Source of the DNA: Promethearchaeota archaeon
Lineage (GTDB): Archaea > Asgardarchaeota > Lokiarchaeia > Sigyniarchaeales > SOKP01
Direction of reading: 5' to 3'
Assembly: GCA_048941015.1 (NCBI GenBank)
Contig: JBHLNZ010000011.1
Location: forward strand, 1 to 64,000
Length of the DNA stretch: 64,000 nucleotides
The translations under genes were made by a program, and so were the position numbers. Positions 14,666 through 52,288 of the stretch are shown here, piece by piece; positions within the stretch are counted from its first letter, which is position 1; the number at the start of each line of letters is the position of its first letter. The notes below the pieces were generated by a model. It made no database searches, was not told where the DNA came from, and saw only the letters and a list, made by a program, of their open reading frames with translations.

Positions 14666-14679
14666 ATAATAACCTTCTA

Positions 14680-15195: not shown

Positions 15196-15264
15196 TAACT
15201 AAATAACAATTATTACATAAAAACCTTTTATTCTGATTCTATAGGATAGATAAAAAATTGAGTG

Positions 15265-15286
15265 TTTGTTCAAAAGTTTGAACAAA
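15265..15286. promoter_or_regulatory. Perfect inverted repeat, candidate transcription-factor operator
   Basis: TTTGTTCAAA-AG-TTTGAACAAA in a divergent promoter region, next to a TATA-like TTTTATAT at about 15293. Confidence 0.45.
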
Positions 15287-15363
15287 AAATATTTTTATAT
15301 TGAATTATCTTCTTATTTTTCAGAAACCAATCAAATTCTATATACGAAACAACTTTTAATAAT

Positions 15364-15942: not shown

Positions 15943-15968
15943 AACTTTTGAAATTCTAAATAGATATA

Positions 15969-16520: not shown

Positions 16521-16599
16521 AACGCTAAAAATTTTAAATAGGCAGTTAATATTTAATATAATTAAAATAAAAAATAAACAAAAAAAGGATATTTCAACC

Positions 16600-17178: not shown

Positions 17179-17209
17179 TTTTGTTAAAACTCTATTTATT
17201 TCAATATTA

Positions 17210-17863: not shown

Positions 17864-18032
17864 GATAATCTTTTTTTTATTTAGTTTTTAAAATCTTAGA
17901 AAAATTATTGAATAATTAATGAGAATCTTACTAAAAGATCAATTTTTTATTCCTTTTATTTATTAATTAATATAGTATTAAAATATAAATTCAAGTATTT
18001 TATTGGTTCAATTTTTTATTTGCTACTCTTAA

Positions 18033-18929
18033 GTGGTAAAAATAATACAATATATCAATATATTAACTCGCGACGGAAAATCGTTATTATTTCGGAATTA
18101 TGGAAGTTCGGATGTAGATAGAGATCTTTTAGCTGGATTTTTAAGTGCTTTTTCTGGCTTTATGAAGGAAATTAGCCAGAGTGATATACGCTCTACAGCA
18201 ACAGACGAGTTTAAATATTATTATACCATTATTGAAGAGATAATAATTGTCGTTTGTACAGATTTAGAAGATGATGACGCTACAATCAATTCAAAAATTA
18301 CAACTATAAAAACTCGATTTATAGAGACTTATGGAGAAGTTATCGCAACGGGGAGTTGGTCTGGCAATCGAGCAATTTTTCGAGATTTTGAACGAATAAT
18401 TGATGATACAATCCTTGGGGCATTTAAGGTTTCTATTATCGGAACTGGTGGAGTAGGAAAAACCACATTATTACACCTTATTTGTGGAGAAGATATTGAT
18501 TTAGAATATGTACCAACCATTAATGTAGACATTACTTCATATGATGGATTTGATGAGATCCCCCGCTCTATAGTATTTTGGGATTTCGCTGGACAAGCGA
18601 ATTTTCGTTCATTATGGAAAAGTCTTCTTGATAGTACTGATATAGCTCTATTAGTCTTAGATTCTACCTTTGAAAATGTAAGTCAAAGTAAAGATATAAT
18701 AAAAGATGTTCTAGATAAATATTATAAAGATACACTAGTTATAGGAATTGCTAATAAACAAGATCTATCTAATAGGCTTACTCCTGAATTCTGCGAGAAA
18801 ATCATTGCAAAAGCAGACAGATATCCACCGATCAAAGTCCATGGTATGGTAGCAATAAACCAAGTATATAGAGAGAAAATCCATGCGATTTTAAGAGAAG
18901 CGATTAAAAAAGTTTATCCAAATAAATGA
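18033..18929 (+). CDS. Longin/roadblock-like domain fused to an Arf-like small GTPase
   Basis: N-term ILTRDGKSLL...LLAGFLSAFSGF (longin-like); C-term GTGGVGKT, YVPTI, WDFAGQ, ANKQD. Confidence 0.85.
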   Translation: MVKIIQYINILTRDGKSLLFRNYGSSDVDRDLLAGFLSAFSGFMKEISQSDIRSTATDEFKYYYTIIEEIIIVVCTDLEDDDATINSKITTIKTRFIETYGEVIATGSWSGNRAIFRDFERIIDDTILGAFKVSIIGTGGVGKTTLLHLICGEDIDLEYVPTINVDITSYDGFDEIPRSIVFWDFAGQANFRSLWKSLLDSTDIALLVLDSTFENVSQSKDIIKDVLDKYYKDTLVIGIANKQDLSNRLTPEFCEKIIAKADRYPPIKVHGMVAINQVYREKIHAILREAIKKVYPNK

Positions 18930-33008: not shown

Positions 33009-33617
33009 TTATTTTTTTGGTTTAAGAAAATCTTTCTCTACTAACTTCCTTAACTCTGCTATTAACCAACATACTTCCTCATATGTAGATGATGATTTGT
33101 AGATTTCTTCCGACTTTTTCTTGATCTCTTTATCATTCAACTTGCTGGTACCTTTTGAAATTTTTAATTGAAGCCTAGCCAATTCTGTGCACAGTTCTTC
33201 ATAGTTTTTATTTTCTTTGGCTAAATTGTATGCATCCAAATTTATTTCTGCAATTAAGTCAGGTTCTAATCCTGCTTCAATTAGTTCCATAGTATCTTCA
33301 ATTTCTAATTCTAATTCTGGACGCTCGCTTGATAAAGATTCTGGTTCTATTCCCTTTCTTATATCATCCATCATAGCGAGAAAAGTACCAAATTCCTCAT
33401 TTTGTCTCATCATCTGCACTTTTGCTGAGTTATTCCTTTTCATGTTAAGATTTTTTGCCCTTCTTAAAGCAAAACCTTCTTTTTTTTTTGATGCTTTTGA
33501 GCCAAGCCAAATATAAATGGTTTTACTTCCGTCAAGTATATATACATTGTTTTGAGTAAAATTAGCTTTTTTTACCTTTCGAGTAACTCCATTTTCATAA
33601 ACGCTATACAAAAGCAT
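33009..33617 (-). CDS. One-domain gelsolin fused to Asgard domain X (1DGelX-like)
   Basis: Gelsolin core VYILD...IYIWLGSKAS...QNEE..F; C-terminal duplicated YEELC/YEEVCWLIAE helices. Confidence 0.8.
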   Translation of the reverse strand: MLLYSVYENGVTRKVKKANFTQNNVYILDGSKTIYIWLGSKASKKKEGFALRRAKNLNMKRNNSAKVQMMRQNEEFGTFLAMMDDIRKGIEPESLSSERPELELEIEDTMELIEAGLEPDLIAEINLDAYNLAKENKNYEELCTELARLQLKISKGTSKLNDKEIKKKSEEIYKSSSTYEEVCWLIAELRKLVEKDFLKPKK

Positions 33618-36404: not shown

Positions 36405-36959
36405 ATGTTCTATGATATTGATATTATAGAGGAAATTAGTGATAATAATCTTTATTTAAGGAAATTAAGTAAAGAAGACATACACTTTTTTTATGAAAGC
36501 CTTCAAGATGAAAATATGACTAGCTACTTATCACTTGGTCCTTTAAGGTCTTTAGAACATTCAAAAAGATTAATTAAGAATTATTTAAAGTCATGGGAAA
36601 AATACTTACAATTCAATTATTTAATAGAAATTAGAGATTCAGAGAAAATAAAAAAAATTGGCTCTGTAAGTCTGTGGAACATAAGTTGGTTGCATAGAAG
36701 AGCCGAAATAGGAATTTGGCTACTTCCAGAATACTGGGAAAAAGGATTTGGCAAAAAAACATTGAATTTGATAAAAAATATTGCTTTTTTTCATTTAAAG
36801 CTGCATAGAATTGAAGCTCATATTGCTGTTGAAAATGAACGTTCGATAAAAACTTTTAAAAATTCTGAGTTTAAAGAAGAAGGTATTTTGAAAGAATATT
36901 TAAATTTAAATGGCAAATATCATAATGCTTTGATTTTGTCTTGTTTAAAAGGGATTTAA
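36405..36959 (+). CDS. GNAT N-acetyltransferase (RimJ/RimL family)
   Basis: AEIGIW, YWEKGFG, LHRIEA, NERS, FKEEGIL. Confidence 0.9.
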   Translation: MFYDIDIIEEISDNNLYLRKLSKEDIHFFYESLQDENMTSYLSLGPLRSLEHSKRLIKNYLKSWEKYLQFNYLIEIRDSEKIKKIGSVSLWNISWLHRRAEIGIWLLPEYWEKGFGKKTLNLIKNIAFFHLKLHRIEAHIAVENERSIKTFKNSEFKEEGILKEYLNLNGKYHNALILSCLKGI

Positions 36960-37385
36960 TACTAAATTTCTTAGAATTCCTTTAGGTTTAACCATTTGTT
37001 CAATATCTTCTGAAAAAGATTTAAAAAGAGCAACATTTCCGTTGAAATTCGTTAATTCAGTCCTAAATTTATTTAAGAATTTATCGAATATCTCTTCAGC
37101 AATCTTATCAATTGATTTCTTTTTAAATTTCTTGTCATCTATTTTGCTGTCACATTTCAAGATTAAATGGAAATGGGATTGAGGATGAGTATAAAAATAA
37201 AACACACTTTTATTCATTTTTAGAGTATTTAGGCTCTCTTTAAACCCATACTTTGTAAACCGGCAGATTTGATCAAAATAACTGGCTATTAATTGATAGT
37301 TATAATCCTTATTGATATTCTCTTGAAAATTATGGCAAAATAATGGGATACCTGTATTAGATAAAATAATGATTTCTTGAATCAA
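36945..37385 (-). CDS. Stand-alone longin-like domain protein
   Basis: IIILSNTGIPLF...LIASYF...FxxKF...F.G.V..F..F pattern shared with the N-terminal domain at 18033. Confidence 0.72.
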   Translation of the reverse strand: MIQEIIILSNTGIPLFCHNFQENINKDYNYQLIASYFDQICRFTKYGFKESLNTLKMNKSVFYFYTHPQSHFHLILKCDSKIDDKKFKKKSIDKIAEEIFDKFLNKFRTELTNFNGNVALFKSFSEDIEQMVKPKGILRNLVLNPF

Positions 37386-37512
37386 AATTATTCCAAAATC
37401 TAAATTGAATTGCTAAAAAGATAACAATTTCTTTAATGATAATTATAAGGGGTTTTGAAATAAATTAAAGTGATTATTAAGGAGTAAATAAGGATGATGA
37501 TTTAATTCTAAT

Positions 37513-38691
37513 TTACAATAATAAAAAAGACTCTAAATGCTCTTTTATTTTTTTAAATTTTGTGAGAGCTTCATTAAGATCTCCTTCACTTAGAAAAGCT
37601 AAACCTTGACTATTTAGATCTTTAACATTTCTTTTAAGTTTTTCAAGAAGATTAAATTCTCGTAGTTTTTGTTTTATCTCATCATTTAATTCTGTGTACA
37701 TCTTGACATAATCATTCTTTCCAATAAATCTTGAAATCTTGATTATTTGTTCACAATTTTCTTGAGCTTTCTCAAATAGATAATTTGATAGATTGTGTTT
37801 CACTTCCTCTTCCAATGATTTTACATCGTTCAATAATTTATTATATTTTTCTTCTGCATCAAGGATAGTTTTCTTTTTTGAAGATAAATTCCTTTCATAA
37901 TATGTTAGATCTTTTTCTTTAACGAAATTTATAATTCTTTCTAACAATTTTTTAGCATCTTCAAATTGATAATTATCCGTAAGATTTGAGATTTTTTCTA
38001 TGGTATCTTCAACAGTTTTCACAACATCTGATTGTTTTTTTAATTCTGAAACCATTGATTCTAAAGTCTCCCACTTTTTCGTAATATTTGTGTCATTTAA
38101 GTCTTTTAACAAAATTTTTGCCTTTTTTACTGTTTCAGATGCCAGAATTATGTTGTTAGTGGCTAAATAGCTATTTAATTGAATTTCTAAGGGATCAAGT
38201 TTTTTTTTCAAATTATTTTGTTCATTATTATAATTCTTCCATAAATTTTGTTCTTTTTTTATTATTTCGTTAATTTCAGGGATGGAATTGAGATCGTAAA
38301 GACTATCAAATTTTTGAATGAATTTTTGAACTGTTTCATGAGCCTCATATATTTTGTTTTCGAGATTAAATTGGTTAAGCTTTTTTTTCAAGATTTTAAA
38401 ATCTTCATTAATATAGGTAGTTATATTTTCTTCTTCTAAATATTCACTTATTTCTGAAATAAATTCTTCCTGTTCTTTGATAATAAATTTTAAATCGACA
38501 GATTTTGCTAATTCTATAATTTTTTCAGCAACTCTAATTGCTTCATTATATCTTTTCATTAAATAATGGTTGTTTGCGATAACTTTTAATTGATCAATTT
38601 CAGAAATAATTCTTATCTTCTTGATACCTATTTCCTTTTTATTCGAATCAAAATTCAAGTTAATCCACCTTAGTATTTTTATCGAGTTCAT
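37513..38691 (-). CDS. Helical-repeat (TPR/MIT-like) protein, paralog of the C-terminal part of 38660..39724
   Basis: All-alpha repeats (YNEAIRVAEKIIELA; FEDAKKLLERII; FEKAQENCEQII); start uncertain. Confidence 0.72.
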   Translation of the reverse strand: MNSIKILRWINLNFDSNKKEIGIKKIRIISEIDQLKVIANNHYLMKRYNEAIRVAEKIIELAKSVDLKFIIKEQEEFISEISEYLEEENITTYINEDFKILKKKLNQFNLENKIYEAHETVQKFIQKFDSLYDLNSIPEINEIIKKEQNLWKNYNNEQNNLKKKLDPLEIQLNSYLATNNIILASETVKKAKILLKDLNDTNITKKWETLESMVSELKKQSDVVKTVEDTIEKISNLTDNYQFEDAKKLLERIINFVKEKDLTYYERNLSSKKKTILDAEEKYNKLLNDVKSLEEEVKHNLSNYLFEKAQENCEQIIKISRFIGKNDYVKMYTELNDEIKQKLREFNLLEKLKRNVKDLNSQGLAFLSEGDLNEALTKFKKIKEHLESFLLL

Positions 38692-39724
38692 AAATGATTT
38701 TTTCGAAAATTTCTAAAGTCTTTACTATTTCCCCTCTATCTAAGAAATTCAATGCATTCTTACTTAGACTTTCAATTCTGTTAATTAATGCGTCTTTTGC
38801 TTCCTTTAATTTGGAATCATAAAAATCCCATCTTTTTGAAATTTGTTCTTCAATTAATTTATTTGCTAATTCTTTTGCATCTTTTAAAATTAAATTTGCT
38901 TTTTCTAAATAATTTTGGTTCAAATTTCTATTGAAACGAATTTCTAAATCATCCAATTGATCCTTGAGCCTATTTTGTTCAGAATTTAAACTGAATAAGA
39001 GTTTTTCATCTTTTAGTATTAAGTCTCGGAAAATAGAAATTGAATATATATTAAAATAATTCTTATACTTTTTTCTTAATGCGCTTACTATTTTATGAGC
39101 ATCTTTAATTTTATTTTTATCAACTAAATTTTGAAATTCATTTAAAGCCTTCATGCACTCTTTTTCGATATCATCAAGCTTGTTTTTTGTTTGTATCCTT
39201 GTTTGTGCTTCACGAATGAAGTTTTTTTGGTCAATTTCAAGAGACTCATCGTCTATTTCTCTCGCTAATCTTAAGATTTTTTCACCTACTGTAATTACTT
39301 CTTCATAATTTTCAGAAAGGAATTTCTTATCAGCAATTTCTTTTAATTTATTTATTTCTGATACTGAAGGTAATAATTTGATTTCTAAATTTCTAATATG
39401 TTTATCCAATTCAGTTCTTGATAAACCAACTGTTTCAAGGAACTCTGAAGATTCAGAACCAGAATCTATGGTGATATTACGTAATATCTTTAATTCCGGA
39501 TATTGTTCATAAAATAATTCTCTCAATCTTGGAATATGACTTTTAAGAGTTTGCGAAGCTTTTTTACCAATCCAAATGAAGAGTCTTTTAAGAAGAGGAT
39601 TGTAAAAAGTAATTATATCAAACAGAGTAAAATATTGTAATAAATTCTCCTGATGAATCTCCTCAAAACTACCAGAATAGTTCAATTTAAAAATTTTTAT
39701 ATTTGAACTCATGTTTGAATTCAT
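38660..39724 (-). CDS. Gelsolin-like domain plus helical-repeat protein
   Basis: N-term DIITFYNP..RLFIWIGKKAS...ITIDSGSESSEF (gelsolin-like), then alpha repeats. Confidence 0.72.
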   Translation of the reverse strand: MNSNMSSNIKIFKLNYSGSFEEIHQENLLQYFTLFDIITFYNPLLKRLFIWIGKKASQTLKSHIPRLRELFYEQYPELKILRNITIDSGSESSEFLETVGLSRTELDKHIRNLEIKLLPSVSEINKLKEIADKKFLSENYEEVITVGEKILRLAREIDDESLEIDQKNFIREAQTRIQTKNKLDDIEKECMKALNEFQNLVDKNKIKDAHKIVSALRKKYKNYFNIYSISIFRDLILKDEKLLFSLNSEQNRLKDQLDDLEIRFNRNLNQNYLEKANLILKDAKELANKLIEEQISKRWDFYDSKLKEAKDALINRIESLSKNALNFLDRGEIVKTLEIFEKIIYELDKNTKVD

Positions 39725-39861
39725 CTAAGAATTAATTATATTTCAATTTTCTTTTATATTCCTTCTTAAAAATTACTCTAAATTAAAAACTCATAGTTTA
39801 ATATATAAATTGAAGAAAAAAAGCATGTTTTTTTGATATTTTGCATTGAATCTGAGATCTT

Positions 39862-42800
39862 CTATGACTTTCCTCCAAGTAATTTTTCTCGTAATATCTT
39901 TCCATCAACAGGGGTTCCTTTAATGAATTTTGAAGTCTTTTTTAATTCATTCTGATAACTATTTTGAAAAGCTGTTTCTCGACTTGTAATTGAAACATCT
40001 GGTGTTGTTGTTTTATTCAAACCTTTACGGTATTTTCTTACTTTCCTTACCGGTTTTGGATATTTGAGTACCTTTTGATAATATAATATATATGTGGTTA
40101 GACAAGCAGCACCTATAACAGCTATGGCAAATAATAATTGAAATAAGAAATTTCTCTCAGTAGGAATAAAAACGTTGTATGATACCTTCAAAATCACATT
40201 ATCGATTGAAATAGTTAAGTTATCAGTCAGATAAAATTCATCAGCTAAATACACTTGTATTGATAGATTGATTGTATCATTATTTGGAATTAATTTAATA
40301 ACATCAAATCCTCCAGGTTTAACATTTTGTAATGAAAGTTTTACATCCGCTAAATGAATTGTTTCGTTATGTTCAATATTATTAATGTAGATCCTAAATT
40401 TAGAATTTGGTGACAAACTTTCAGGCCATAACTGGTTAATCATACACTCAAAATTAAGATTTGCTTCAGTTATTTCTACTCTATAATTCCCAGCTTTAAT
40501 TTTATCTGCATTATAGGTCCAGGTCAAGCTATTAAATTGATTAATCTTCTTTTCGTAAGATATAGATAAAGTAAAATTTTTAATGATGATCATTTGCCAA
40601 TTATCACTATCACCTGGATGGCCGCTATCTTCGCACCAATAATACATCCCCAAGGTAATAGCAAAATTTTTGTAGTCATATTGTAAAGCATGTTCAAGAT
40701 AAAAGATCAAAGTTTCTTCATTTATCGGCATGATAGCGGTATCATTTAGCTGATTAATAGCAGGAGGTCCATCTTTTCCTAGATCATCCGTCTGGTATTG
40801 AGTAGCAATAAATTCTCGATTTCGGTTTAAATCGGAAATTAGCATAAAGTATCTTACAAAATCTCCTGTTGCTATTTGTACTGTGGTCCCTCCACTTGTA
40901 GTATCACCAGGCCGATCTATACCTCCTCCATTAACAGGACTCGCTTGAACACTCCCGTTAATCCAAGCTATAAGTGATGCTGAAGTAATATAATAGTCAG
41001 ACATGTTAATATCCATTGTAAAGTTCTTTCTCCATTGTACTTTTACCGATTGAGGTGCATTATCTGGCCATATAAAATATGAATACCAACCTCTCTCGTC
41101 CATTCCATAATCTCCTATAGTAAAGTTATCAGGTAATACTAATCCATCATCATTATCAATTCGAGTCCAATTACTACTTGTACCATTTTCATAAAATATT
41201 TGCTCCCCACTTTTACCTAAAATATCATAATTTGCGACTCCATTATTAATATTACTACCCATATCTGAGAGATCTCCTTCAATAGTTGAAGTCCAATTCA
41301 TTGTAGTATCAAAATTTGGGTTTTTTATCAATTGATCTTCGCGTGGTTCTATTTTGAATAATTCCGAGGGATTTTCTTGAGACAACTTTATGAAATCTGT
41401 ATTTTTTTGAACTTCAAACTTATAATTACCACTCAGAATAATTTGAGAAAAGATCAGCAATCCGAAGATAATAAAAAATATAATAATTAATTCTTTTGAT
41501 AATTTTGGCTTATTTTGTAGCAAAGTGGGTCTTTGTTTAACTGTTTTAGAGTATTCTATAGATCTTAATCCCAAAGATCCCGAAGTTTTTTTAATTTGCT
41601 TATTATATTTAGATTCAAAAGAATTTTTACGACTTTTTATTAAAATACTTGGAGAAGAGGGTTTATTTAGTGTCTTTCTATACTTTCTTACTTTCCTTAC
41701 TGGTTTAGGAAATCTCAAAACCCTTCGGTAATAAATTAGATATGTAGCTAATAATCCAGAAGTTATCAACGCCGCAATCAATAATATCTGAAACAGAATA
41801 TCACGCTGCGTTGGGAAAAAAATGTTATATGAGATATATAAAAGAACATTATCTAAACTCAATGTATAATTTTGATCTAAATCAAATCCATCAGCAATGT
41901 AAAGTTGCAAAGAGATATTGATCTCTTCATACTCGGGAATCAAAGTTGTAATCTTAAATCCATCACTTTTAGCTGGTTTAGAAGTTGTTTCTGCATCAAT
42001 TAATCTTATAGTTTCTGTATGCTCTCTTTCATTAATTTTTATTCTGATTTCTGAGTTTGGAGATAAATCTAAGGGCCAATCTTGATTAATTCTATAATTA
42101 AAGAACAGATTGGCATCTGTAACTTCTACAATTCCGCCTTTATTATTAATTTTATTTCCAAGATATTTCCAAGAGACAGAAGTGAATTGATTAATTTTTT
42201 TTGTATAGCTTATTGTAAAATTACAGGATTTGATATAAACTTCCGAAAATTCATCAAGATCTGTCCAAAAGTTATCTTCACAATTAAATTCGATTCCAAG
42301 TGCTATTATAAAGTTTTGATAGTCTCCATTTTCTAAAACTTGGTTTAAATAAAATATTAAGTCATTTATATTACTAGCTTCAATTAGAGTATCATATAAA
42401 TAATCATAGCTATCTGGAGTTTGATCCCCATCCTGTCCTAATGTTGTAGTTTGATTTTCAATAACTTTATAGTTAACACTTTTATCTAAATTCGCTAATT
42501 TTACATAAAATTTAATATAATCTCCTTCTATAAACCCTACTGCAGGCTCATATGAATCACCACTAACTTCTACTCCTTCCCAACTCCAGATATCCTGATT
42601 ATTTCCTCCTTCATAAGCTTTTGCTGTAGCGTTAATTAATATATCAAGAGATGCAGAAGTAATATTATAATCTGACATATTATAAGGAGTTGTAATTATT
42701 TTTTCCCATTGAATACTAGTTTTTTGATAAGCATTTGTAGTCGCTCCATCATATTCTGCCCATAAGTGAGACGCATAACATCCATGTTCATCTATTCCAT

Positions 42801-43209
42801 GACCTTGAGTGGGATATACGGGGATTTCAGGATTTGTTGTATTATACCAATTTAAAGAAGTTGATGAATTTGGTGTTCCAGAAATTAATGTTGTTGTAAA
42901 ATTTTCTCCAATAACGTTAAGATTAGCTTCTCCATTATTAATATTTGCTGATACATCTCTTGAATCTCCTTCGATAACTGAAACCCATCCTGTTGCATCT
43001 TCAAAATTAGAGTTTTGAATCCATTGTTGATCTTTAAATGTTTCTGTAAACCATCTATTTCCGCTTTCTTGTTGATTAAGGAGGAATACTTTTTCTACCT
43101 CATTGTTAATAGGAAAAATAGTAAATAAGAATGATGATATTAATAATACGGCTAAAAATGTAGTAAAAACGATAAAAATTGTATTGTTTTTATTTAACTT
43201 AATTTTCAT
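39862..43209 (-). CDS. Cell-surface membrane protein, double-unit member of the paralog array
   Basis: Two complete units (TM, ectodomain, TM, basic tail) in one 1115 aa ORF. Confidence 0.85.
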   Translation of the reverse strand: MKIKLNKNNTIFIVFTTFLAVLLISSFLFTIFPINNEVEKVFLLNQQESGNRWFTETFKDQQWIQNSNFEDATGWVSVIEGDSRDVSANINNGEANLNVIGENFTTTLISGTPNSSTSLNWYNTTNPEIPVYPTQGHGIDEHGCYASHLWAEYDGATTNAYQKTSIQWEKIITTPYNMSDYNITSASLDILINATAKAYEGGNNQDIWSWEGVEVSGDSYEPAVGFIEGDYIKFYVKLANLDKSVNYKVIENQTTTLGQDGDQTPDSYDYLYDTLIEASNINDLIFYLNQVLENGDYQNFIIALGIEFNCEDNFWTDLDEFSEVYIKSCNFTISYTKKINQFTSVSWKYLGNKINNKGGIVEVTDANLFFNYRINQDWPLDLSPNSEIRIKINEREHTETIRLIDAETTSKPAKSDGFKITTLIPEYEEINISLQLYIADGFDLDQNYTLSLDNVLLYISYNIFFPTQRDILFQILLIAALITSGLLATYLIYYRRVLRFPKPVRKVRKYRKTLNKPSSPSILIKSRKNSFESKYNKQIKKTSGSLGLRSIEYSKTVKQRPTLLQNKPKLSKELIIIFFIIFGLLIFSQIILSGNYKFEVQKNTDFIKLSQENPSELFKIEPREDQLIKNPNFDTTMNWTSTIEGDLSDMGSNINNGVANYDILGKSGEQIFYENGTSSNWTRIDNDDGLVLPDNFTIGDYGMDERGWYSYFIWPDNAPQSVKVQWRKNFTMDINMSDYYITSASLIAWINGSVQASPVNGGGIDRPGDTTSGGTTVQIATGDFVRYFMLISDLNRNREFIATQYQTDDLGKDGPPAINQLNDTAIMPINEETLIFYLEHALQYDYKNFAITLGMYYWCEDSGHPGDSDNWQMIIIKNFTLSISYEKKINQFNSLTWTYNADKIKAGNYRVEITEANLNFECMINQLWPESLSPNSKFRIYINNIEHNETIHLADVKLSLQNVKPGGFDVIKLIPNNDTINLSIQVYLADEFYLTDNLTISIDNVILKVSYNVFIPTERNFLFQLLFAIAVIGAACLTTYILYYQKVLKYPKPVRKVRKYRKGLNKTTTPDVSITSRETAFQNSYQNELKKTSKFIKGTPVDGKILREKLLGGKS

Positions 43210-43516
43210 GAATTATTAACTCCTATTTTTATGTAATTTTCTCCTCTTAAAATAAACCTTTATTAGATAATATAAAGATCGATAATTAAGTTTCTAATAA
43301 AAAAGGTTGATATAAATAATTTATAGTTTAGAATTTATATTTTACTCAATAAGCAAATATTTTTCTTATTATGAAGAATTTCTACTAATTTCTTTAATTA
43401 TTTTTGAATCAAACATTTTTCAATCAATAAGATTTAAGTTACTTCTCCAAAATTTATTTTTTAAAATAAATAAGAAAAGATAAAAATAATATTTAAGATA
43501 TTATTTCTTTTTATAC

Positions 43517-45208
43517 CTATTTTTCTAACATTTTGTCTCTAAGAATTTTACCATCTACAGGTATACCTTTCAGAAATTTACTCGATTTATCAACTTCTTT
43601 TTGAAATTTTCGATTAAAGGCTCTATCACGACTGATGATGTTTACACTCGGATCTCTTTCTCTCGGTAAAGTTTTCCTATATTTTCTCACTTTTCTTACG
43701 GGAACAGGATACTTTAAATATGTTTGATAAGCTATAAGATATGATGCCGCAGTAATTGCTGCTATTAGTGCTATTATGAATAAACCGAGAAAAAGTAAAT
43801 TTTGGGGAATAACATCTGGGAGCGTTTCAGTGTAAGAAATATATAGATATACATCTGTTATAGAAATAGTGATATTATCTTCCAAACCGAAATCTTCAGC
43901 TATATACACTTGGATTGATAAGTTGAATTCTTCATAAGGGAGAATTTTTGATAAAATATCGTATCCACCTGCTTTTGCCTCTTGAAAGTTTGGTGAGTTA
44001 GAATATTCTATTAAATCTAATGAAGGGTCTTCAAATTTTCTATCATTGATAAAAATTCTAAATTTCGAATTTTGAGAAGCAGTGGTCCAATTCTGATCAA
44101 TTTTGAACTTAAATCTAAGATTCGCTCCTGTTACTTGCACGCTTGTACCATTAATTTCATCTAATTCTTGATTCCAAGAAATACTTGTTGATTGATCGAT
44201 CCTTTTTACATAATTGAAGGTTAAATTCAAGTTTTTAATACGCAGCTCTGTCCAATCGTCTAAATCATATCCAGATTGATTATCTTCACAGTACATATAA
44301 ATTCCTAATACAACTGTAAAATTATTATGACCGGGATCAATTGCTAAAACATTAGTTAAAGCATCAATTATTGCTTGATCTCCATACGTTCCAATTAATC
44401 CTTCAATATCATATAACGAAAGTCCTTCATTACCTAACCAACGTGTTTGATTAAAAGCAATCCTATAAGTACTTAACTCATCAACATCTAAAGTAGAAAT
44501 CTCAACGTAAAATCGGGCAAAATCATACTTATCTGTGTGTTGATCTAATGTGTATCCTGCTCTGGCATCCGGATCGCCAGGTGTGTCAATATACATATCA
44601 ACACTTGCATTAATTATTGCTTCAAAATCTACTGAAGTAATAATATAATCAGACATATCAACATCTAAACTCACATTAGTCTTCCAATGTATTTCAGGAG
44701 TATTTTTAGGTTGACCACCAGTATCTTGTTCCCGCCACCGATGCGTACACCAAACGCCATCACTATCAACTCCATAGTATGGACCAGGAACATCTGTTCT
44801 TTGAGGCAAAATAACAGACTCAGATTTATTAAACGGTTCCCAGTTTGAATAAGATGTACTGTTAAGTATAACTTGTTGTTCATATGCTTCTCCAATAATT
44901 TCAAAATTTGCCTGGTTTGAACCAGTTGTTGCTAATACATCAGATACATCTCCTTCATAGGTTTGAAACCATGTAGGTTCTATAGGGGCATTAAATGTTG
45001 GATTATCCACCCATAATATATTATTATGCTCTTTTACAGCAGAAGGTTTAATTATTGCATTATTTTGAGCAATTCCTGTTCCAAATCTGAGACGTAATAA
45101 AGCTGAAGTTAACACTATACTTATAAAGATAAATAGAACTAAGAAACCAAGTCTCCTTTTTTTATTTTTCCTAAAAAAATTTATAAAATTCAACATCAAG
45201 ATCAACAT
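43517..45208 (-). CDS. Cell-surface membrane protein, paralog array member
   Basis: N-terminal TM, NPTF..PIEPTW, MSDYIITS, CEDN, C-terminal TM, YPVPVRKVRKYRK tail. Confidence 0.85.
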   Translation of the reverse strand: MLILMLNFINFFRKNKKRRLGFLVLFIFISIVLTSALLRLRFGTGIAQNNAIIKPSAVKEHNNILWVDNPTFNAPIEPTWFQTYEGDVSDVLATTGSNQANFEIIGEAYEQQVILNSTSYSNWEPFNKSESVILPQRTDVPGPYYGVDSDGVWCTHRWREQDTGGQPKNTPEIHWKTNVSLDVDMSDYIITSVDFEAIINASVDMYIDTPGDPDARAGYTLDQHTDKYDFARFYVEISTLDVDELSTYRIAFNQTRWLGNEGLSLYDIEGLIGTYGDQAIIDALTNVLAIDPGHNNFTVVLGIYMYCEDNQSGYDLDDWTELRIKNLNLTFNYVKRIDQSTSISWNQELDEINGTSVQVTGANLRFKFKIDQNWTTASQNSKFRIFINDRKFEDPSLDLIEYSNSPNFQEAKAGGYDILSKILPYEEFNLSIQVYIAEDFGLEDNITISITDVYLYISYTETLPDVIPQNLLFLGLFIIALIAAITAASYLIAYQTYLKYPVPVRKVRKYRKTLPRERDPSVNIISRDRAFNRKFQKEVDKSSKFLKGIPVDGKILRDKMLEK

Positions 45209-45354
45209 AAGAATTTCTTATTAAATTAATTTATTCGTAATATTTTATAATATTAATTTATAAGTTAAATTGGATGGCATTTAGTTTACTAACATATATT
45301 AAAAAAATACTTAAAAATATTTAGAAGATTTTAGTGAAATAAGCATTTTCTGAA

Positions 45355-47034
45355 TCATTTTTGGAGAATATTGTTTTCTTGATTACTTAATAATTTTTCC
45401 CTTAAAATTTTTCCATCTATTGGTGTACCTTTGAGATATCTATTGGTTTTATGCATCTCTTTTCGAAAAGATTGGTTAAAAGCTTTATCACGGCTAATAA
45501 TTTTTACATCAGGTTCCTTTTCTTTATGTAAAGTCTTACTAAACTTTCTTACCTTCCGAACAGGGATAGGATATTTTAAATACAACTGATAAGCAATTAA
45601 ATATCCTGTTAAAATAGTCGCTGCAAATAAAGCAATTATGAATAATCCTGTAGCTATCCAAGGCTCGATTCTTGGAGGTATAATCTCTTCAGTATAGGAA
45701 ATAATAAGTTGAACATCATCTATCGAGACTGTAAGATTTTGAGCAAGTCTAAACTCATCAGCGAGAAAAACTTGAATAGATAAAGTTATATTTACATTTA
45801 TTAATATTAAAGAAGTAACATCGAAGCCTTCTATGTTTGCTTCTTGAAAAGAGCTTGATGCTGTACTAAGTTTAATTGTTTCTGAATGTTGGTTATCATT
45901 AATAATTATTCTGATTTCAGAGTTAGGAGATAATGATGTTGGCCAAGAGTTTGAAATGTTATATTTGAACTTCAAATTTCCATCCGTTATTTGAACGTTA
46001 GATCCTGAAATTTTATTCCCTACCTGATTCCAAGAAACCGAAGTTGATCGATCCATCTTTTTCTCGTATGTAAATGATAAATCGCAAGATTTTATCAATA
46101 AGGAATACCATACGTCTAATTCGTATCCGGGATAATTATCTTCAGAATCTACTTCTATCCCAAGTGTAATTGTAAAGTTATAATTATCATGCTTTAATAC
46201 TTGCGTTAATGAGAAAATCAAAACATCCTCATCAACTTTAGTCATATTAGTATCAGACATATAATTTCTTGTTGAAAAATCATAATCTCTTCTGTCAGCA
46301 TAGCCTTCACCTAGATTTAATGTTTTGTTATAAGCAATTTCATAGGATTCCAAATTATTTAAATCAGAGATTTCGACATAAAAGCGAGTATAATCAAATA
46401 ACGACGCGTAACCTCCTTCGGCAAAAGGTGGATGGTCATTAGGTGTTTCAATATCAGTGTCCGCACTACCATTCACAACAGCATTTATTGAAGCGGAAGT
46501 TATTATGTAATCAGACATATCAACTGGCATGGTAACATTTCTTTTCCATAGAACGCCAGCTAAATTGGCAGTTTGATCACCAGAATTTGGAAATGGACCA
46601 CTTGAATCCTCATCATATACATGTGAAACATTGCAGCCATATTGATTAATCTCATGAGTTAATGGCAAAGGACGTACAGAATGGTTAAACTCTATCCAAT
46701 CACCAGCTTGAGGTGTTCCTGAGATCTCAGAAAAGGTCTGAGAATCACCAAGTATTTCAAAATTAGCTTGTCCTGGGCTTGTACTCGCACTCACATCAGA
46801 AAAATCACCTTGAATATTAGAAAACCAGGTTGGTTCAATTGGATCGTCAAATGTAGGGTTCTTTATCCATGAATTATTAGGATGGGCTATTATCCTGGAC
46901 GATTTTAAGGAATCTTCTTCGATAGAAATTTTTGTTGAAATTTGATTCCCTTTTAAAAACCCATAAAAAATAAACGCCATCATAAAAATTAGAATTATCA
47001 GAAAAAGATTTTTCTTTAAAGAGAGTTTTCTCAT
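45355..47034 (-). CDS. Cell-surface membrane protein, paralog array member
   Basis: Same architecture; SEDN, YPIPVRKVRKF, KGTPIDGKILREKLL. Confidence 0.85.
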   Translation of the reverse strand: MRKLSLKKNLFLIILIFMMAFIFYGFLKGNQISTKISIEEDSLKSSRIIAHPNNSWIKNPTFDDPIEPTWFSNIQGDFSDVSASTSPGQANFEILGDSQTFSEISGTPQAGDWIEFNHSVRPLPLTHEINQYGCNVSHVYDEDSSGPFPNSGDQTANLAGVLWKRNVTMPVDMSDYIITSASINAVVNGSADTDIETPNDHPPFAEGGYASLFDYTRFYVEISDLNNLESYEIAYNKTLNLGEGYADRRDYDFSTRNYMSDTNMTKVDEDVLIFSLTQVLKHDNYNFTITLGIEVDSEDNYPGYELDVWYSLLIKSCDLSFTYEKKMDRSTSVSWNQVGNKISGSNVQITDGNLKFKYNISNSWPTSLSPNSEIRIIINDNQHSETIKLSTASSSFQEANIEGFDVTSLILINVNITLSIQVFLADEFRLAQNLTVSIDDVQLIISYTEEIIPPRIEPWIATGLFIIALFAATILTGYLIAYQLYLKYPIPVRKVRKFSKTLHKEKEPDVKIISRDKAFNQSFRKEMHKTNRYLKGTPIDGKILREKLLSNQENNILQK

Positions 47035-47038
47035 TTTT

Positions 47039-48646
47039 TTAGCTACCTCCCTTCAGTAATTTAGAACTTCTACTTATTTCTTTCTCATAAGCCATTGAAA
47101 AAGAGCTTTCACGACTTTTAATTTCAGTGGAGGGTGTTTGTTCTTGGTTTAAGGTTTTTCGATATTTTCTTAATTTTCGAATTGGCTTTGGATATTTTAA
47201 CACCTTTTGATAAGCGATAATATAAGATCCTATTGTAAGAGCTGCAATAGTCGTAATTATAAGCAATATCCTGAAAATTAAAGGCTCTGGTTCTGGTGAA
47301 GGATCAGGTACTGTTTCAGTGTATGTTATAGATAAAAATACATCATCAATAGAAAGAACTATTACTTTATTTAGTTCAAACTCATCTGCAAGTAATACCT
47401 GAATAGAAAATGTTATATTTTCATATGGCAATAAGATATTTGATAAATCAAATCCATCTATTTTTGCATATTCAAATGTACTTATAGCGGTGCTCAACTT
47501 TATTGTTTCTGAATGCTTTCTATTATTAATATAAATTTCAATTTCTGAATTTGGAGACAATAGGGTAGACCAAATCTCACTAATCTTATACTTAAAATTT
47601 AAATTAGCACGCTTAATCTCAACATTATTTCCAGAAACAGCTGGTGCTTCTTGATTCCAAGATACCGCAGTTAATTGATTAACTTTTCTTTCATAGGTAA
47701 TTGTTAAATTACAAGATTTAATAAGGAGTGAATAAAACGTGTCTCTATCAGCTTGATCATAATTATCCTCGCAGTAAATATCGATTCCAAGCGTAATACC
47801 AAAATGATATGGATCTTTTTCTAAGGCTTTTGTTAAATAAAATATTAATTTGGTATCATTTATTTGAGACATTAATGTGTCAGTTAAATAATCTATAACT
47901 CCAGTTCCTTGACGAGTTTGATCTCCTTGCCCTAGATTGACCGTTTGATAATAAGCTATTTCATATAAATTTTCATAATCTAAATTTGAAACTTTTACAT
48001 AAAATCTAGCATAATCATAATATGTTGCAAAATATCCTGCACCATCAAAACTCAAATCATCAATAGGAGTCTCAACATTGGTATCTGCGCTTCCATTGAC
48101 TATTGCTGTTATTGAAGCAGAAGTAATTATATAATCTGACATATTGTCCATCATAGTAACATTTTTTCTCCAATGGACGCTTGGTCTATTCCTAGATTGA
48201 TCTGTATTTTCTTGAAATTCATGAGAGGCTTCGCATCCATTTGAATTAATTTCATGGGTACCATCCGGTAAAATAAAATAAGTATTGTTGAATTCAATCC
48301 AGTCTACCGCTTGTGGAGTACCTGAAACATTTTGAAATGTTCGATTTTCGCCTAATATCTCAAAGTTAACTTGTCCATAACTAACTGTTCCATTAACATC
48401 TGAAATATCCCCTCGATAATTTGTAAACCATGTTGGTTCTATAGGGGAATTAAAGCTAGGATTTTGGAGCCAAGAATTATTAGTTCTTGTAACGACTTTT
48501 GCTGTTTTAGGATTCTCGAAGCTTTCGGATTGTGTTAAAATATGATTTGAATTCAGTAAAATAGTAAAAGTCATAAAAGTGGATAAAATTAAAATGAAAA
48601 ATTTGAATTGAATTTTCTTTTTATGAAAACTTTTTAATTTTCTCAT
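47039..48646 (-). CDS. Cell-surface membrane protein, paralog array member (first gene of the array)
   Basis: Same architecture; ATG 48646 (MRKLK) after AGGGG parallels the MRKLS start of the next gene; tail YPKPIRKLRKYRK. Confidence 0.85.
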   Translation of the reverse strand: MRKLKSFHKKKIQFKFFILILSTFMTFTILLNSNHILTQSESFENPKTAKVVTRTNNSWLQNPSFNSPIEPTWFTNYRGDISDVNGTVSYGQVNFEILGENRTFQNVSGTPQAVDWIEFNNTYFILPDGTHEINSNGCEASHEFQENTDQSRNRPSVHWRKNVTMMDNMSDYIITSASITAIVNGSADTNVETPIDDLSFDGAGYFATYYDYARFYVKVSNLDYENLYEIAYYQTVNLGQGDQTRQGTGVIDYLTDTLMSQINDTKLIFYLTKALEKDPYHFGITLGIDIYCEDNYDQADRDTFYSLLIKSCNLTITYERKVNQLTAVSWNQEAPAVSGNNVEIKRANLNFKYKISEIWSTLLSPNSEIEIYINNRKHSETIKLSTAISTFEYAKIDGFDLSNILLPYENITFSIQVLLADEFELNKVIVLSIDDVFLSITYTETVPDPSPEPEPLIFRILLIITTIAALTIGSYIIAYQKVLKYPKPIRKLRKYRKTLNQEQTPSTEIKSRESSFSMAYEKEISRSSKLLKGGS

Positions 48647-48791
48647 AATAAATTTTCCCCTAAAATCCAAAATTATTGATGAATTTTAAATAATTTAATT
48701 GGTTAAATTTAATTTAATAAGTTACTTAAGAAATAATTATATATAATTTAATTTAGAAAATATATTTATAATATTATAGAGGCAAACCAAA

Positions 48792-50048
48792 TTGATTCAA
48801 GGAATTTTGACATTTCAGTTTAAGTTGAATCAAAACGAAACTACTGGTGAAATCAATCCAGAGTTTAGCCCAATTCAATTAGTATTTAAAAATGAGCAAT
48901 ACACTGAACAAAATTATAATGAACTAATAATTGAAAACGATATCTTTGCAACATTCTATCAACATACGACTGGAGTTACTGGTGTGAAATATGGTTTTAG
49001 CAACTTTTATGAAGGAAAATTAAAAGAAACTCCATATCAAGTATTATCTTATTTCAAACAACTTCCTGATGGAACACAGTATTTAGTAATGTCCTTATTT
49101 GAACTAGACGATGAGATAGAATTATTTGAAGATATCATGAAGGATATGGCAAAAAGATTAGATACGATTCTTGAAAAGTTGACCAAAGCTGTTAATACAA
49201 AACAAATGGATTTGATTTCTAACGTTAATATTAGATTAATGAATGAATTAAAGTACACTATCTTCCAGGTTGAACGCTTAAGTCAATTAGACAGATTACA
49301 AAAAGTTGCCCTTATTTATAATAGCCCTGAAAGACTAAAAATCTTAGAAACTGTGAGAGAAAGACCAATTTCAAAAGATGAGATGAAAAAAGTTATCGAA
49401 AAAATGAAACCAACTGCAAATATTGATATTCTTCTTAGACCATTTTTAGAGCTGAATTTAGTTCGCCGTGATTGGATTCGTGGTGAGAAAGACAAAAAGA
49501 CGGGTATTGTTAAAAATCAAGGAGAATACTTATTCTTAGTAAAAGATATTATATTCACTCGAGTACCCAATGAAAATTTGTTGAAGCATTTTAAAGAAAC
49601 TAATAATGAGCTCTTAGATGCTTACAAACAAAGAGCGGTTGATTTCTTTTCAGCTTACGATCCTTTAACAGAAAAGATCGAAGAAACCCAAAAACTAGCA
49701 GCTATTTTATTAAATCCAGATGTCTATGATTTCTTTGTACTAATGCGTTCAAACCATTACCCTTTGGATAAAATACCTAAAATTTTCTCTGAATTTGCCG
49801 TAACGGAAATACTACTTGATAATCTGAAAAAATTGAACATTATTACTGAAGTAAAGGATGAAGCGAAACGAAGTTGGATTTTATTACTAACAGATATCAA
49901 ACCTCTTACTATTTTTCCAGAATATCTCCTTCCAAAAATTAGAGAGGCTTATAGAAATGAAGATGTTGATGGGAAAATTACTCATGAGATTGCTAAAAAA
50001 GCATTAAATCTTCTTGAGGTCACTTATCCTGAAAGAATACTATTTTAA
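48792..50048 (+). CDS. Longin/uDENN-like domain plus two winged-helix domains (NPRL2-like architecture)
   Basis: N-terminal alpha/beta region, then ERLKILETVRERPISKDE...LELNLVRRDW and VYDFFVLMRS...LKKLNII wHTH-like units. Confidence 0.55.
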   Translation: MIQGILTFQFKLNQNETTGEINPEFSPIQLVFKNEQYTEQNYNELIIENDIFATFYQHTTGVTGVKYGFSNFYEGKLKETPYQVLSYFKQLPDGTQYLVMSLFELDDEIELFEDIMKDMAKRLDTILEKLTKAVNTKQMDLISNVNIRLMNELKYTIFQVERLSQLDRLQKVALIYNSPERLKILETVRERPISKDEMKKVIEKMKPTANIDILLRPFLELNLVRRDWIRGEKDKKTGIVKNQGEYLFLVKDIIFTRVPNENLLKHFKETNNELLDAYKQRAVDFFSAYDPLTEKIEETQKLAAILLNPDVYDFFVLMRSNHYPLDKIPKIFSEFAVTEILLDNLKKLNIITEVKDEAKRSWILLLTDIKPLTIFPEYLLPKIREAYRNEDVDGKITHEIAKKALNLLEVTYPERILF

Positions 50049-50074
50049 TAATTGAAATGAGATGATGTAAAAAG

Positions 50075-52288
50075 ATGTATTTATTTAAAGATAAAGAAGA
50101 AGTGGAGATACCTTATGGCTGTAAAGTATGCTTAAAGGAAATAAAGTTTAGAGTATCAGCAAAAGAGTATAAAGATGTCACCAAATTTCCTATTAAAAAA
50201 GAATCAGTACATGGAGACCCTCCTCATAAACTTGTTGTGTATCTAAATCAATATTTAGAAGTCGAAAATTTTGAGATAAAAGAAATTTTGAAACGGGAAG
50301 AGGTTTCCTATTCAGAAGAGTTAATGAAACAAGTATTAAGTGAGATTGAATTAACTCCTGAAGAAATTGAATTATATTTTAGAACAACAGGTAGAGAAGC
50401 AGTCTCAGTAGGAGAAATGGCGATATTAGTTAACAAACCTAAGACAGAATGTGAAAAGATTGCTAAAAAATTTGTAGAAAAAGGATTATTTAAAGAAGTT
50501 GTTGGAGCAAAACCACATTATAGTGCTTTACCTCCATATGCTGCTTTAGTAAGCCAATTACAAAAATTTCATCAATATATTACAGATATAAAAAAGAGTA
50601 TTCCAGTTCAATTAGATCAATCATTCGCAAAATTAGAATCAAAAACGGGAAAAGTTGAAAAAGCACCTGCTCCTTCTACTGAATTAATGAAAGAACTGAA
50701 AGATAATATGTTAACACAGATACGTTCTCAAAAAAAGGAATTTGATGAAACGCTAGCTGTTATGGACCAGATTAGAGGTATTACAGAAGATATTAGTAGT
50801 TTAGAAGGTTATACTGACAAAATAGCAGATACCCAATTTGGGGATTTCACTAAACAATTTGATGATATTAATAAGAAAACTTCTCAAATCATTAAAGGCC
50901 AAATTGATAACTTAAAGAATGAATTTAATAATGTCAAGTCGACAGTATCTGATAATTTACAAAAATTAAGACTTGGGGTAATCCAACAATCTGTAGACCA
51001 AGTACTTGAGAAAGTTATAGAATCACGATTAAAAGAAATTACAGATAGTATAAATGTTCAGCTAAGTGTGAGTCAAGTAGCTTTTGCTGATGAATTAAAA
51101 AAAGCTACCACTGGAGTTAATACAGATTTACTTTCAAAAATTAAAGATTCCATACAGAGCACGATTAAAAATTTAGACGGATTAGCTGCTAAAACTGATT
51201 TAGATAAGGATCAAATTTTCGCGAATATAAGTGAAAATTTCAATAAAGCTGTCCAAGCAGCAGAAGAAAAAATCGAAAGTTTATCAGGAACCACTTTTGA
51301 ATCTTTAGGAGACCTAAGAGATGTTTTTTCAACCCAAATTGTGTCAACACTCGATAATACTTTGAGTGATATTTTAAAAAGATTAGAAATTTCTGAAAAG
51401 GTTACAAATGACTTCTGGGATCAAGCTAAAAAAGGCACAGGATTCACGATGAAAGATATCTGGTTTATAAGATCTCCAGAAAGCGCGAAAGCTCATATTA
51501 ATGACGAAATCGGAAAAGCAAAAATGAGAATTCTAATAGTGGCTCCGCAGATTAGTGATGTTGACATAAACGCGATTAAAGAACGCCCAAAGCATATAAA
51601 TTTTAGAATTGCGGCAAGTATTGATCTCTCAAATCCTCAACATACAGCAATTATTCAGGAATTAGATCAAATGGATAATGTTGATTATAGACATCGCACT
51701 CTACAAAACCTTTGGGGGATCAATAAAGATTATGAAGAAGTAATTGTATGTGTACTTTCAAAAACAGAAATACGAGGAGATATAGTTACTGAAATTGCTG
51801 GGATAGGAAGTATTATAGAAGAACATATTAAAATTTTCGTTCCCATTCTTGAGGATGCATGGATGGGCGCAAGAAAGGAAGTGATGCATGCTATTAAAAC
51901 CTCTGTAGCTAAAGAAGCACCCGTGGAAGAGAAACCAAAATTAGAGCCGGTTGTTGTTAAACCAAAGGTTATGATTCCTCCTGAAAAAGAAGTTCCTACT
52001 CCAAAAGAGGAAGAGAAAGTAGAGCCTAAAGCTCCAGCGACATCATTGTTAGGAAAACAATTTGATTTAATAGAGGAAAGTCTTAATAAGCTGACAGGAT
52101 TAGAAATTTCCTCTGCATTAGAGAAATTTCAGAATGAATATATCAAGAAGGAAGGTTATAATAGTGTATTAAAAAATGTACATAATACTAGCACTAATCT
52201 TCGAAGTAAAACTTATATTTTAAGCCAGCCAGAAAAAGACGACTTAAAAATGAAAATGAACTTTTGGCGCCAAAAACTAAATCTCTAA
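50075..52288 (+). CDS. Multidomain protein: Zn-binding module, TrmB-type wHTH, long helical/coiled-coil region, TrmB effector/PLD-like domain, C-terminal helical domain
   Basis: CKVC...HG..PH; LTPEEIELY...FVEKGL...YSALPP; about 290 aa of amphipathic helices; IWFIRS...AKMRILIVAP. Confidence 0.7.
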   Translation: MYLFKDKEEVEIPYGCKVCLKEIKFRVSAKEYKDVTKFPIKKESVHGDPPHKLVVYLNQYLEVENFEIKEILKREEVSYSEELMKQVLSEIELTPEEIELYFRTTGREAVSVGEMAILVNKPKTECEKIAKKFVEKGLFKEVVGAKPHYSALPPYAALVSQLQKFHQYITDIKKSIPVQLDQSFAKLESKTGKVEKAPAPSTELMKELKDNMLTQIRSQKKEFDETLAVMDQIRGITEDISSLEGYTDKIADTQFGDFTKQFDDINKKTSQIIKGQIDNLKNEFNNVKSTVSDNLQKLRLGVIQQSVDQVLEKVIESRLKEITDSINVQLSVSQVAFADELKKATTGVNTDLLSKIKDSIQSTIKNLDGLAAKTDLDKDQIFANISENFNKAVQAAEEKIESLSGTTFESLGDLRDVFSTQIVSTLDNTLSDILKRLEISEKVTNDFWDQAKKGTGFTMKDIWFIRSPESAKAHINDEIGKAKMRILIVAPQISDVDINAIKERPKHINFRIAASIDLSNPQHTAIIQELDQMDNVDYRHRTLQNLWGINKDYEEVIVCVLSKTEIRGDIVTEIAGIGSIIEEHIKIFVPILEDAWMGARKEVMHAIKTSVAKEAPVEEKPKLEPVVVKPKVMIPPEKEVPTPKEEEKVEPKAPATSLLGKQFDLIEESLNKLTGLEISSALEKFQNEYIKKEGYNSVLKNVHNTSTNLRSKTYILSQPEKDDLKMKMNFWRQKLNL

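Follow-up and report, generated by a model that had tools for sequence, protein, structure and literature searches.

Conserved pairing of a surface-protein tail with a tandem winged-helix protein in Asgard archaea, next to a gelsolin/longin gene set in a Lokiarchaeial genome

Two modules at one locus

The current study deals with nine open reading frames (ORFs) at positions 36945-52288 of contig JBHLNZ010000011.1 (C136), which belongs to a 3.59-Mb Lokiarchaeial metagenome-assembled genome (G000, about 29% G+C). The first 64,000 nucleotides of this contig were analysed, and this whole stretch is called the window below. The comparative data suggest that the nine genes fall into two separately conserved modules which abut in this genus. 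In module A, tandem surface proteins carry a basic cytoplasmic tail that would be read by a shared tandem winged-helix protein (ORF 48792, the type member of the family called wHTH2 here), and module B would be a separate set of gelsolin and longin genes. We regard this reading as rather likely to be correct. Its new point, namely the conserved pairing, and sometimes fusion, of the juxtamembrane tail with the tandem winged-helix protein in several Asgard lineages, is well supported. A preliminary description of the window had treated all of these genes as one system; the genes and most of the domain assignments in it are real, and the proposed single system is a juxtaposition of two modules.

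ORF calling confirmed all nine ORFs at the positions first proposed for them. They are named by their lower coordinate, and are listed here with the evidence for the assignment where this is not evident from the text:

36945..37385, minus strand: 146-aa longin-fold protein of module B (AlphaFold2 (AF2) and Foldseek)
37513..38691, minus strand: 392-aa alpha-helical protein, gelsolin-less paralog of 38660, module B (sequence alignment)
38660..39724, minus strand: 354-aa protein with one gelsolin domain (about 39425-39703) followed by a helical region, a 1DGelX-type layout, module B (profile search)
39862..43209, minus strand: 1115-aa fusion of two surface-protein units with four transmembrane segments (TMs), tails at 41509-41727 and 39865-40077
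43517..45208, minus strand: 563-aa single-pass surface-protein unit, tail at 43520-43723, TMs at residues 18-43 and 464-495
45355..47034, minus strand: 559-aa surface-protein unit, tail at 45358-45582
47039..48670, minus strand: 543-aa surface-protein unit, tail at 47042-47209, TTG start, alternative ATG at 48649
48722..48743, plus strand: conserved promoter-like element TTACTTAAGAAATAATTATATA, 22 nt, about 50 nt upstream of 48792 (orthologous loci)
48792..50048, plus strand: 418-aa tandem winged-helix protein, proposed tail partner, module A (AF2, VIA and synteny)
50075..52288, plus strand: 737-aa protein with a TrmB-like winged helix-turn-helix (wHTH), a long coiled coil and a C-terminal domain, module A (Pfam matches of orthologs)

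The minus-strand genes are separated by gaps of 4, 146, 307, 137 and 127 bp, and 38660 overlaps 37513 by 32 nt. For comparison, 161 genomes of the class and 301 of the phylum were sampled; labels beginning with G denote genomes, and those beginning with g and f denote genera and families.

Pairing of the tail with the tandem winged-helix protein

An ortholog or paralog of 48792 adjoins a gene of the array family in genera g1, g12, g11, g2 and g6, and in family f3 (G010, G013, G016 and G021). The arrangement is divergent in family f1, and co-directional and nearly abutting (48792, 50075, membrane protein) in G021, G013 and G016, while cassettes of the type seen on contig C12 of G000 have the order membrane protein, 48792-like, 50075-like. 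The gene for 50075 follows 48792 or a paralog on C12 of G000 and in G025, G067, G081, G088, G013, G016 and G021. When five complete genomes were surveyed, about 19 of 27 wHTH2-family hits had a single-pass protein as neighbour or fusion partner.

The paralogs of 48792 usually lie 3-5 nt downstream of genes for single-pass proteins of 1200-2400 aa, which carry the motif [R/K]IPx[F/I][V/I]K[K/Q] after the TM. Among the large single-pass proteins of G000, 8 of 26 carry the tail motif, and seven of these eight cluster with a wHTH2 gene, while the eighth is truncated at a contig end; the 18 others are never placed in this way (0/18). Counted by locus, the figures are four of five motif loci with wHTH2 versus none of about 16. 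Contig C44 of G000 (6078-18540, plus strand) holds two consecutive cassettes, with giant proteins of 1437 and 1460 aa and wHTH2 proteins of 369 and 368 aa. Between them lies a conserved, oppositely oriented gene for a helical protein of about 346 aa, as is likewise the case in G066 and G067.

The two partners are also found as one polypeptide. A 2087-aa protein of G067 consists of TM, tail, linker and a wHTH2 domain (profile positions 80-414, i-E 3.7e-33), and a second fusion of this type is encoded in G066. About 100 public clusters at 90% identity (proteins of 1200-2990 aa) cover at least 97% of the TM-tail-wHTH2 stretch of the G067 protein at 47-72% identity, and many of these fused proteins have LamG-like, DUF2341 or CarboxypepD_reg ectodomains. 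The fusions are without the first ~80 residues of the free-standing wHTH2 partner, and this part of 48792 may be a docking part which a covalent link makes needless.

Outside the class, tail and wHTH2 were found paired in two further Asgard families, namely f26 and f8 (the latter with genomes of about 1.4 Mb), and the wHTH2 family as such is present in 200 of the 301 sampled genomes of the phylum. Linkage and fusions across genera therefore make 48792 the best candidate for a shared tail partner. That the tails have such a cytosolic partner in common had been proposed before, and comparative genomics strongly suggests it; the role had been given to the gelsolin, helical and longin proteins (the trio hereafter), whereas synteny and fusions indicate the tandem-wHTH protein 48792 instead. 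No description of the tail/wHTH2 pairing was found in a limited literature search.

Properties of 48792 and 50075

The winged-helix part of 48792 was borne out by AF2 and VIA and consists of two units, residues 168-260 and 288-381, modelled at a predicted local distance difference test score (pLDDT) of about 90 and preceded by a helical hairpin. The units look ArsR/SmtB-like at Z about 7; for residues 288-381, VIA returned SrnR, ArsR, CzrA, Rv0081 and BigR at Z 6.7-7.2, a range that may reflect a common arrangement. All Foldseek matches of 48792 had E>=0.04, Pfam HVO_A0261_N matched eight of 14 orthologs (best E 0.0014), and a search of the ESM Atlas gave nothing useful. Comparison with hhalign revealed no relation of the wHTH2 family to the 36945 longin family or to the C135-type module described further below, and PDB profile searches gave no meaningful match for the wHTH2 family, 50075 or the C135-type module. 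The charge is unevenly distributed, with a pI of 4.6 for the N-terminal part plus hairpin and of 9.7 for the first winged helix. A possible order of an alpha/beta N-domain followed by two winged helices is a point of likeness to NPRL2/NPRL3 of GATOR1, which have a longin and C-terminal winged-helix-like parts; however, no GATOR1 chain was among the Foldseek or VIA rows, and the N-domain (residues 1-101) was modelled by AF2 at a pLDDT of about 30. The longin that the preliminary description placed in 48792 is accordingly putative.

ORF 50075 itself matched the Pfam TrmB HTH below the cut-off of 25.6 bits (14.4 bits, E 0.035), and this domain was found in seven of 12 orthologs (best E 1.4e-6); a long helical region follows it. 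These orthologs resemble TrmB regulators in having an N-terminal TrmB-type wHTH. Unlike these, 50075 has about 290 residues of inserted coiled coil and is always paired with a wHTH2 protein, and the C-terminal sugar-binding domain of TrmB was not detected in it. Searches of the studied proteins against Pfam, NCBIfam and PADLOC gave nothing above cut-off, except a weak PADLOC row to the ZorA cytoplasmic tail (residues 156-409 of 50075, E 4.5e-6), which is probably compositional.

These properties would also suit a simpler role: 48792 and 50075 might control transcription of the surface-protein genes beside them, as ordinary local regulators that make no contact with the tail. Both proteins carry folds of the winged-helix DNA-binding type, the first winged helix of 48792 is basic, and a divergent layout with a conserved promoter-like element before 48792 is typical of regulator-target pairs. 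The divergent gap of the preliminary description is indeed present, its length being 121 bp from the TTG start or about 142 bp from the next ATG rather than 145 bp. The element TTACTTAAGAAATAATTATATA in this gap is kept in 14 of 16 orthologous loci of g1 and g12; it is probably the promoter of 48792, and may be read as a B recognition element with a TATA box (BRE/TATA). However, it was not found again at the array genes or at other cassettes of G000. Moreover, a free regulator would not be expected to occur covalently behind TM and tail, as wHTH2 does in the roughly 100 natural proteins mentioned above, and adjacency follows the tail motif, not membrane proteins generally (7/8 versus 0/18). 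A purely regulatory role for the pair is hence considered fairly unlikely.

Several observations weigh against tail reading by 48792, or against its proposed output. Adjacency of wHTH2 would be compatible as well with a local regulator that leaves the tail untouched, and no membrane gene adjoins the remaining ~8 of the 27 wHTH2-family members in the five complete genomes. Between the tails of the giant proteins and the array-tail profile, the likeness is limited to a short motif and does not reach E<1e-3. In G343, one sampled genome of another class, no large ORF lies beside the wHTH2 gene. The low pLDDT of residues 1-101 belongs here as well, and winged-helix folds also mediate protein contacts, which bears on an output through DNA binding.

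The surface-protein array

The four paralogous membrane proteins with a conserved tail were confirmed, and their ORFs hold five paralogous units with pairwise identities of 35-51%. ORF 39862-43209 consists of two units head-to-tail, for which the predicted topology is self-consistent (outside domain, TM, cytoplasmic tail, TM, outside domain, TM, tail). At least 17 genomes of g1 and g12 have double-unit ORFs (1099-1192 aa), and an assembly artefact was rejected since the fusion is kept in these genomes.

Mean identity among the units is 41% for the ectodomains, 51% for the tails and 76% for the first 16 tail residues (YPxPVRKVRKYRK). The tail, which had been called invariant, is therefore better conserved than the ectodomain, yet not invariant. 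It is basic and juxtamembrane (pI 10.6), with the core [Y/I]-P-x-x-V-[R/K]-K. The strict pattern PxP[VIL][RK][RK][VIL][RK][RK] occurs in G000 in the five array tails only, and a looser pattern finds four further proteins elsewhere in this genome. A C-terminal signal of the archaeosortase type was considered and rejected in view of the length of the tail (about 65 residues) and its conservation throughout.

The units contain about 21 N-x-S/T sequons per 1000 residues, versus 0-15 in neighbouring proteins, a density that fits an ectodomain located outside the cell. Searches with the ectodomain found no Pfam, NCBIfam, PADLOC or PDB-sequence match, and its ESM Atlas model had no structural neighbour outside its own family above a TM-score of 0.36. 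The unit family is present in 146 of the 161 class genomes.

Rapid change of the ectodomains, as had been predicted, was borne out by comparison with the nearest sampled genome, G139. Here 36945, 48792, 50075 and the GNAT and enoyl-CoA hydratase genes of the flanks are 87-93% identical, whereas the single array units reach only 38-51% (50.5% for the best match of unit 45355). The two-unit protein 39862-43209 is 76-79% identical, and the module B proteins 38660 and 37513 reach 70% and 68%. The nearest relatives of unit 43517 (58-65%) are spread over other genomes, g12 among them. Low identity of the units beside conserved flanks is, as judged from these comparisons, the pattern of exposed proteins under diversification or exchange.

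Separate conservation of the two modules

Module A (array, 48792 and 50075) was linked in every genus examined, in three gene orders. At ten g1 loci the entire neighbourhood is kept, including the metabolic flanks, which in g1 and g12 are 3HCDH, enoyl-CoA hydratase and GNAT on one side and MBL, FAD and URO-D on the other. Ten g12 loci have the same flanks, the array and 48792-50075; the trio is absent from them, and array and GNAT gene are direct neighbours. The gelsolin-helical and helical genes of g12 are still paired at other loci, where no array, tail, wHTH2 or longin gene was found within 8-10 kb. The complete g12 genome G067 has the longin ortholog at 1.95 Mb, the gelsolin pair at 2.01 Mb and the array at 2.99 Mb, so that pair and array are 975 kb apart (about 1.06 Mb in G066), and in complete g12 genomes the three pieces are separated by 62 kb to 1 Mb. 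The gelsolin protein is also away from array genes in g5, g6, g13 and family f3. Only in g11 (G050, G052 and G053) does the trio adjoin the array again, in the order longin, gelsolin-helical, helical. Synteny across Lokiarchaeia, which the preliminary description had proposed as a check, thus holds for array, 48792 and 50075, and extends to the trio only in g1 and part of g11.

Since synteny across g1 and g12 is just as good for the metabolic flanks, one could suppose that the genes have no joint function and merely share an inherited order in a slowly rearranging chromosome region. This is very improbable, as paralogous cassettes at loci unrelated to this one, and in further families and classes, show the pairing of tail and wHTH2 again, and fusions exist.

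The same loci bear on the function first proposed for the trio, in which the tail recruits the gelsolin, helical-repeat and longin proteins as adaptors that, like those of cargo, lead to lokiactin or membrane remodelling. Throughout g1 the trio is next to the array, and in g11 it is so with another internal order, so this adjacency outlived rearrangement. However, array and flanks are conserved without the trio at the ten g12 loci, where the gelsolin pair sits at array-free positions and the longin ortholog at a third locus; unlinked adaptor genes in relatives tell in part against the trio as tail adaptors. Fusions of tail and gelsolin were not seen, and the gelsolin protein is not beside array genes in the four further taxa named above. 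Taken with the domain data given below, adaptor function of this kind appears distinctly unlikely.

Proposed function and known systems

In the reading favoured here, the array would be a set of tandem single-pass surface proteins with sequon-rich, fast-diverging ectodomains and a basic juxtamembrane tail. A shared cytoplasmic 48792 would read the tails of all array proteins, perhaps by contact of the basic tail with its acidic N-terminal part, and would often work together with the TrmB-like coiled-coil protein 50075. Such contact may couple cell-surface events to a cytoplasmic output. The best guess for this output is DNA binding and gene control by the basic first winged helix of 48792, and an alternative would be a role of 48792 as a sub-membrane scaffold. 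Module B, which lies beside the array in certain genera only, could feed into module A here or be independent of it; coupling of the array to actin would be conceivable in this genus.

ToxR and CadC are membrane-tethered winged-helix regulators in which the wHTH lies N-terminal to the TM and the periplasmic sensors are small. Module A would resemble them in that a winged-helix module in the cytoplasm is joined to a single-pass protein with an outside domain, whether in one chain or as a separate partner. It differs in that wHTH2 lies C-terminal to the TM, is often split off and is doubled, with putative DNA binding, and in that the ectodomains which it goes with are adhesin-like and either giant or arrayed.

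Current ideas on the origin of eukaryotes give a central place to contact between cells. Cultured Lokiarchaeia have no ordered S-layer; both their cell bodies and their protrusions bear "complex surface proteins" whose identity is unknown (PMC9834061). The current study names a large, quickly diverging family of Lokiarchaeial surface proteins, and adds a candidate for its conserved cytoplasmic partner, wHTH2, that occurs in several Asgard classes and is recognised by no domain library, so that a concrete pairing can now be considered. It also corrects the attractive, weakly supported view of gelsolin and longin proteins as cargo-type adaptors for the tails.

Proteins of module B

The gelsolin domain of 38660 was supported by profile search. 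A profile of 12 orthologs, covering the first ~110 residues, matched the 94-aa gelsolin-like chain 7c2f_B (E 4.8e-5, 68 columns), and weaker rows, each at E >0.05, were Loki 2DGel, adseverin, villin (villin-1) and Heimdall 2DGel; the single sequence of 38660 had no match to Pfam Gelsolin. One N-terminal gelsolin domain is followed by about 250 residues that align with the all-helical 37513. The identification of 37513 as a gelsolin-less paralog was upheld (31.6% identity over 244 aa, E 3e-19).

Proteins with one gelsolin domain and an X region (1DGelX) are a named Asgard class, with similar layouts in Lokiarchaeota (Akil et al. 2020, PMC7444086), and the Thor 1DGelX severs and nucleates actin without a need for calcium (PMC7444086). 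Like this class, 38660 has one gelsolin/cofilin domain and then a helical/coiled-coil region of no known family (PMC7444086); it differs in that its gene is grouped here with a gelsolin-less paralog and a longin gene. A second gelsolin-type gene lies in the neighbourhood, 3.3 kb from the trio (33009-33617, minus strand); in its 202-aa product, Pfam recognises a Gelsolin repeat with a score above the cut-off (E 1.8e-10, 41 bits).

An alpha-solenoid of the AP/COPI type next to the longin, as had been suggested, was not recovered. Pfam gave no Adaptin_N or coatomer match for 37513 or 38660, only sub-threshold TPR rows (TPR_2 at E 8.4e-6 for 37513), BLAST self-comparison found no clear internal repeat in either protein, and a PDB profile search with the helical proteins returned designed helical bundles only. 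The missing coat-type solenoid is a further point against the adaptor function weighed above.

The longin assignment of 36945 was supported by predicted structure. Its AF2 model (pLDDT 76) has the DSSP order beta-beta-alpha-beta-beta-beta-alpha of a longin, and Foldseek matched it to TRAPP Bet5 (2j3t_C, E 5.5e-5), AP2/AP3 sigma, zeta-COP, Tca17 and Sec22b; all 13 matches at E<=1e-3 were of longin or roadblock type (TM-score 0.45-0.62). By sequence, 36945 had no Pfam or PDB match, and its family is multi-copy in all 161 class genomes (161/161). In fold and size 36945 is like the longin small subunits (AP sigma, zeta-COP, TRAPP Bet5/Tca17 and the Sec22 N-domain), and the resemblance to sigma-adaptin and zeta-COP speaks for an adaptor. 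However, it lacks sequence-level membership in these families, has many paralogs per genome, and no large adaptin, mu or coatomer partner was detected near it. Within the window, the N-terminal domain of a 298-aa protein (18033-18926, plus strand) also matches the 36945 longin profile (E 1.9e-6).

Next to the gelsolin-helical gene of f3 and of several other genera lies a gene whose product, about 690 aa long, has a 36945-like longin domain at its end; this arrangement counts in favour of the adaptor model. In G013 (L065), a 914-aa gelsolin-helical protein (8260-11001, minus strand) is followed by a 693-aa protein (6103-8181, minus strand) whose alpha/beta N-terminus precedes TPR repeats (TPR_12, E 3e-8) and, at the C-terminus, a 36945-like longin, so that it reads longin-TPR-longin. 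Neighbours of this type are also found in G016, at about 3.742-3.747 Mb. With gelsolin and longin linked separately across genera, module B looks like a unit in its own right, most probably a set that regulates actin, with a longin partner.

Receptor-like paralogs and recurring longins

The ectodomain family of the array is also found with other cytoplasmic parts. It is joined via one TM to TIR_2 in G075 (L077, 4637-6937, minus strand; E 1.7e-15, 58 bits) and in G099 (L082, 6711-8786, minus strand; E 3.4e-12, 47 bits), both above the TIR_2 cut-off of 28 bits. These paralogs share the ectodomain-TM-TIR layout of Toll-like receptors; they differ from the latter in an ectodomain that is not built of leucine-rich repeats (LRR), and they lie outside the window, in which Pfam found no TIR domain in any protein. 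Prokaryotic TIRs are often NADases in defence; PADLOC gave only weak ThsB/SAVED-TIR rows.

A sixth ectodomain paralog in G000 (C135, 2860-4998, minus strand; L071) is a 713-aa protein with a different cytoplasmic side, namely a 248-residue module with a wHTH-like end, for which DnaD_N matches eight of 27 members. Modules of this C135 type are present in 158 of the 161 class genomes, often in many copies and on proteins of 700-1850 aa, and on at least ten other single-pass proteins of G000. The first half of the module aligns collinearly, and weakly, with the 36945 longin family (hhalign E 0.003, probability 11%). The 36945 profile also matches the cytoplasmic domain of a 767-aa membrane protein of G067 (E 7e-7), and 36945-type longin genes lie directly after wHTH2 in two cassettes of G021 (E 1e-9 to 1e-11).

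Longin-type domains therefore recur on the cytoplasmic side of related membrane proteins, which agrees with part of the preliminary description. Both this and the longin genes after wHTH2 favour the adaptor model, and the recurrence of longins around surface proteins keeps a reduced form of it alive. Ectodomain paralogs with TIR or longin-like plus wHTH cytoplasmic parts fit a receptor role for the family, as far as domain layout can suggest one.

A wider picture can be drawn tentatively, and it is rather doubtful that all of it would hold. Module A would then represent a widespread, undescribed form of Asgard transmembrane coupling, in which exchangeable and often giant or arrayed ectodomains signal via the tail to a tandem wHTH partner, fused or split; sister architectures would use longin-like plus wHTH or TIR outputs, and in some Lokiarchaeial genera the adjacent gelsolin/longin module would tie surface contact to the lokiactin cytoskeleton.

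As to TIR-like sequences in G000 itself, contig C114 encodes two single-pass proteins whose tails start in a TIR-like manner (…VFISHA…DD…).

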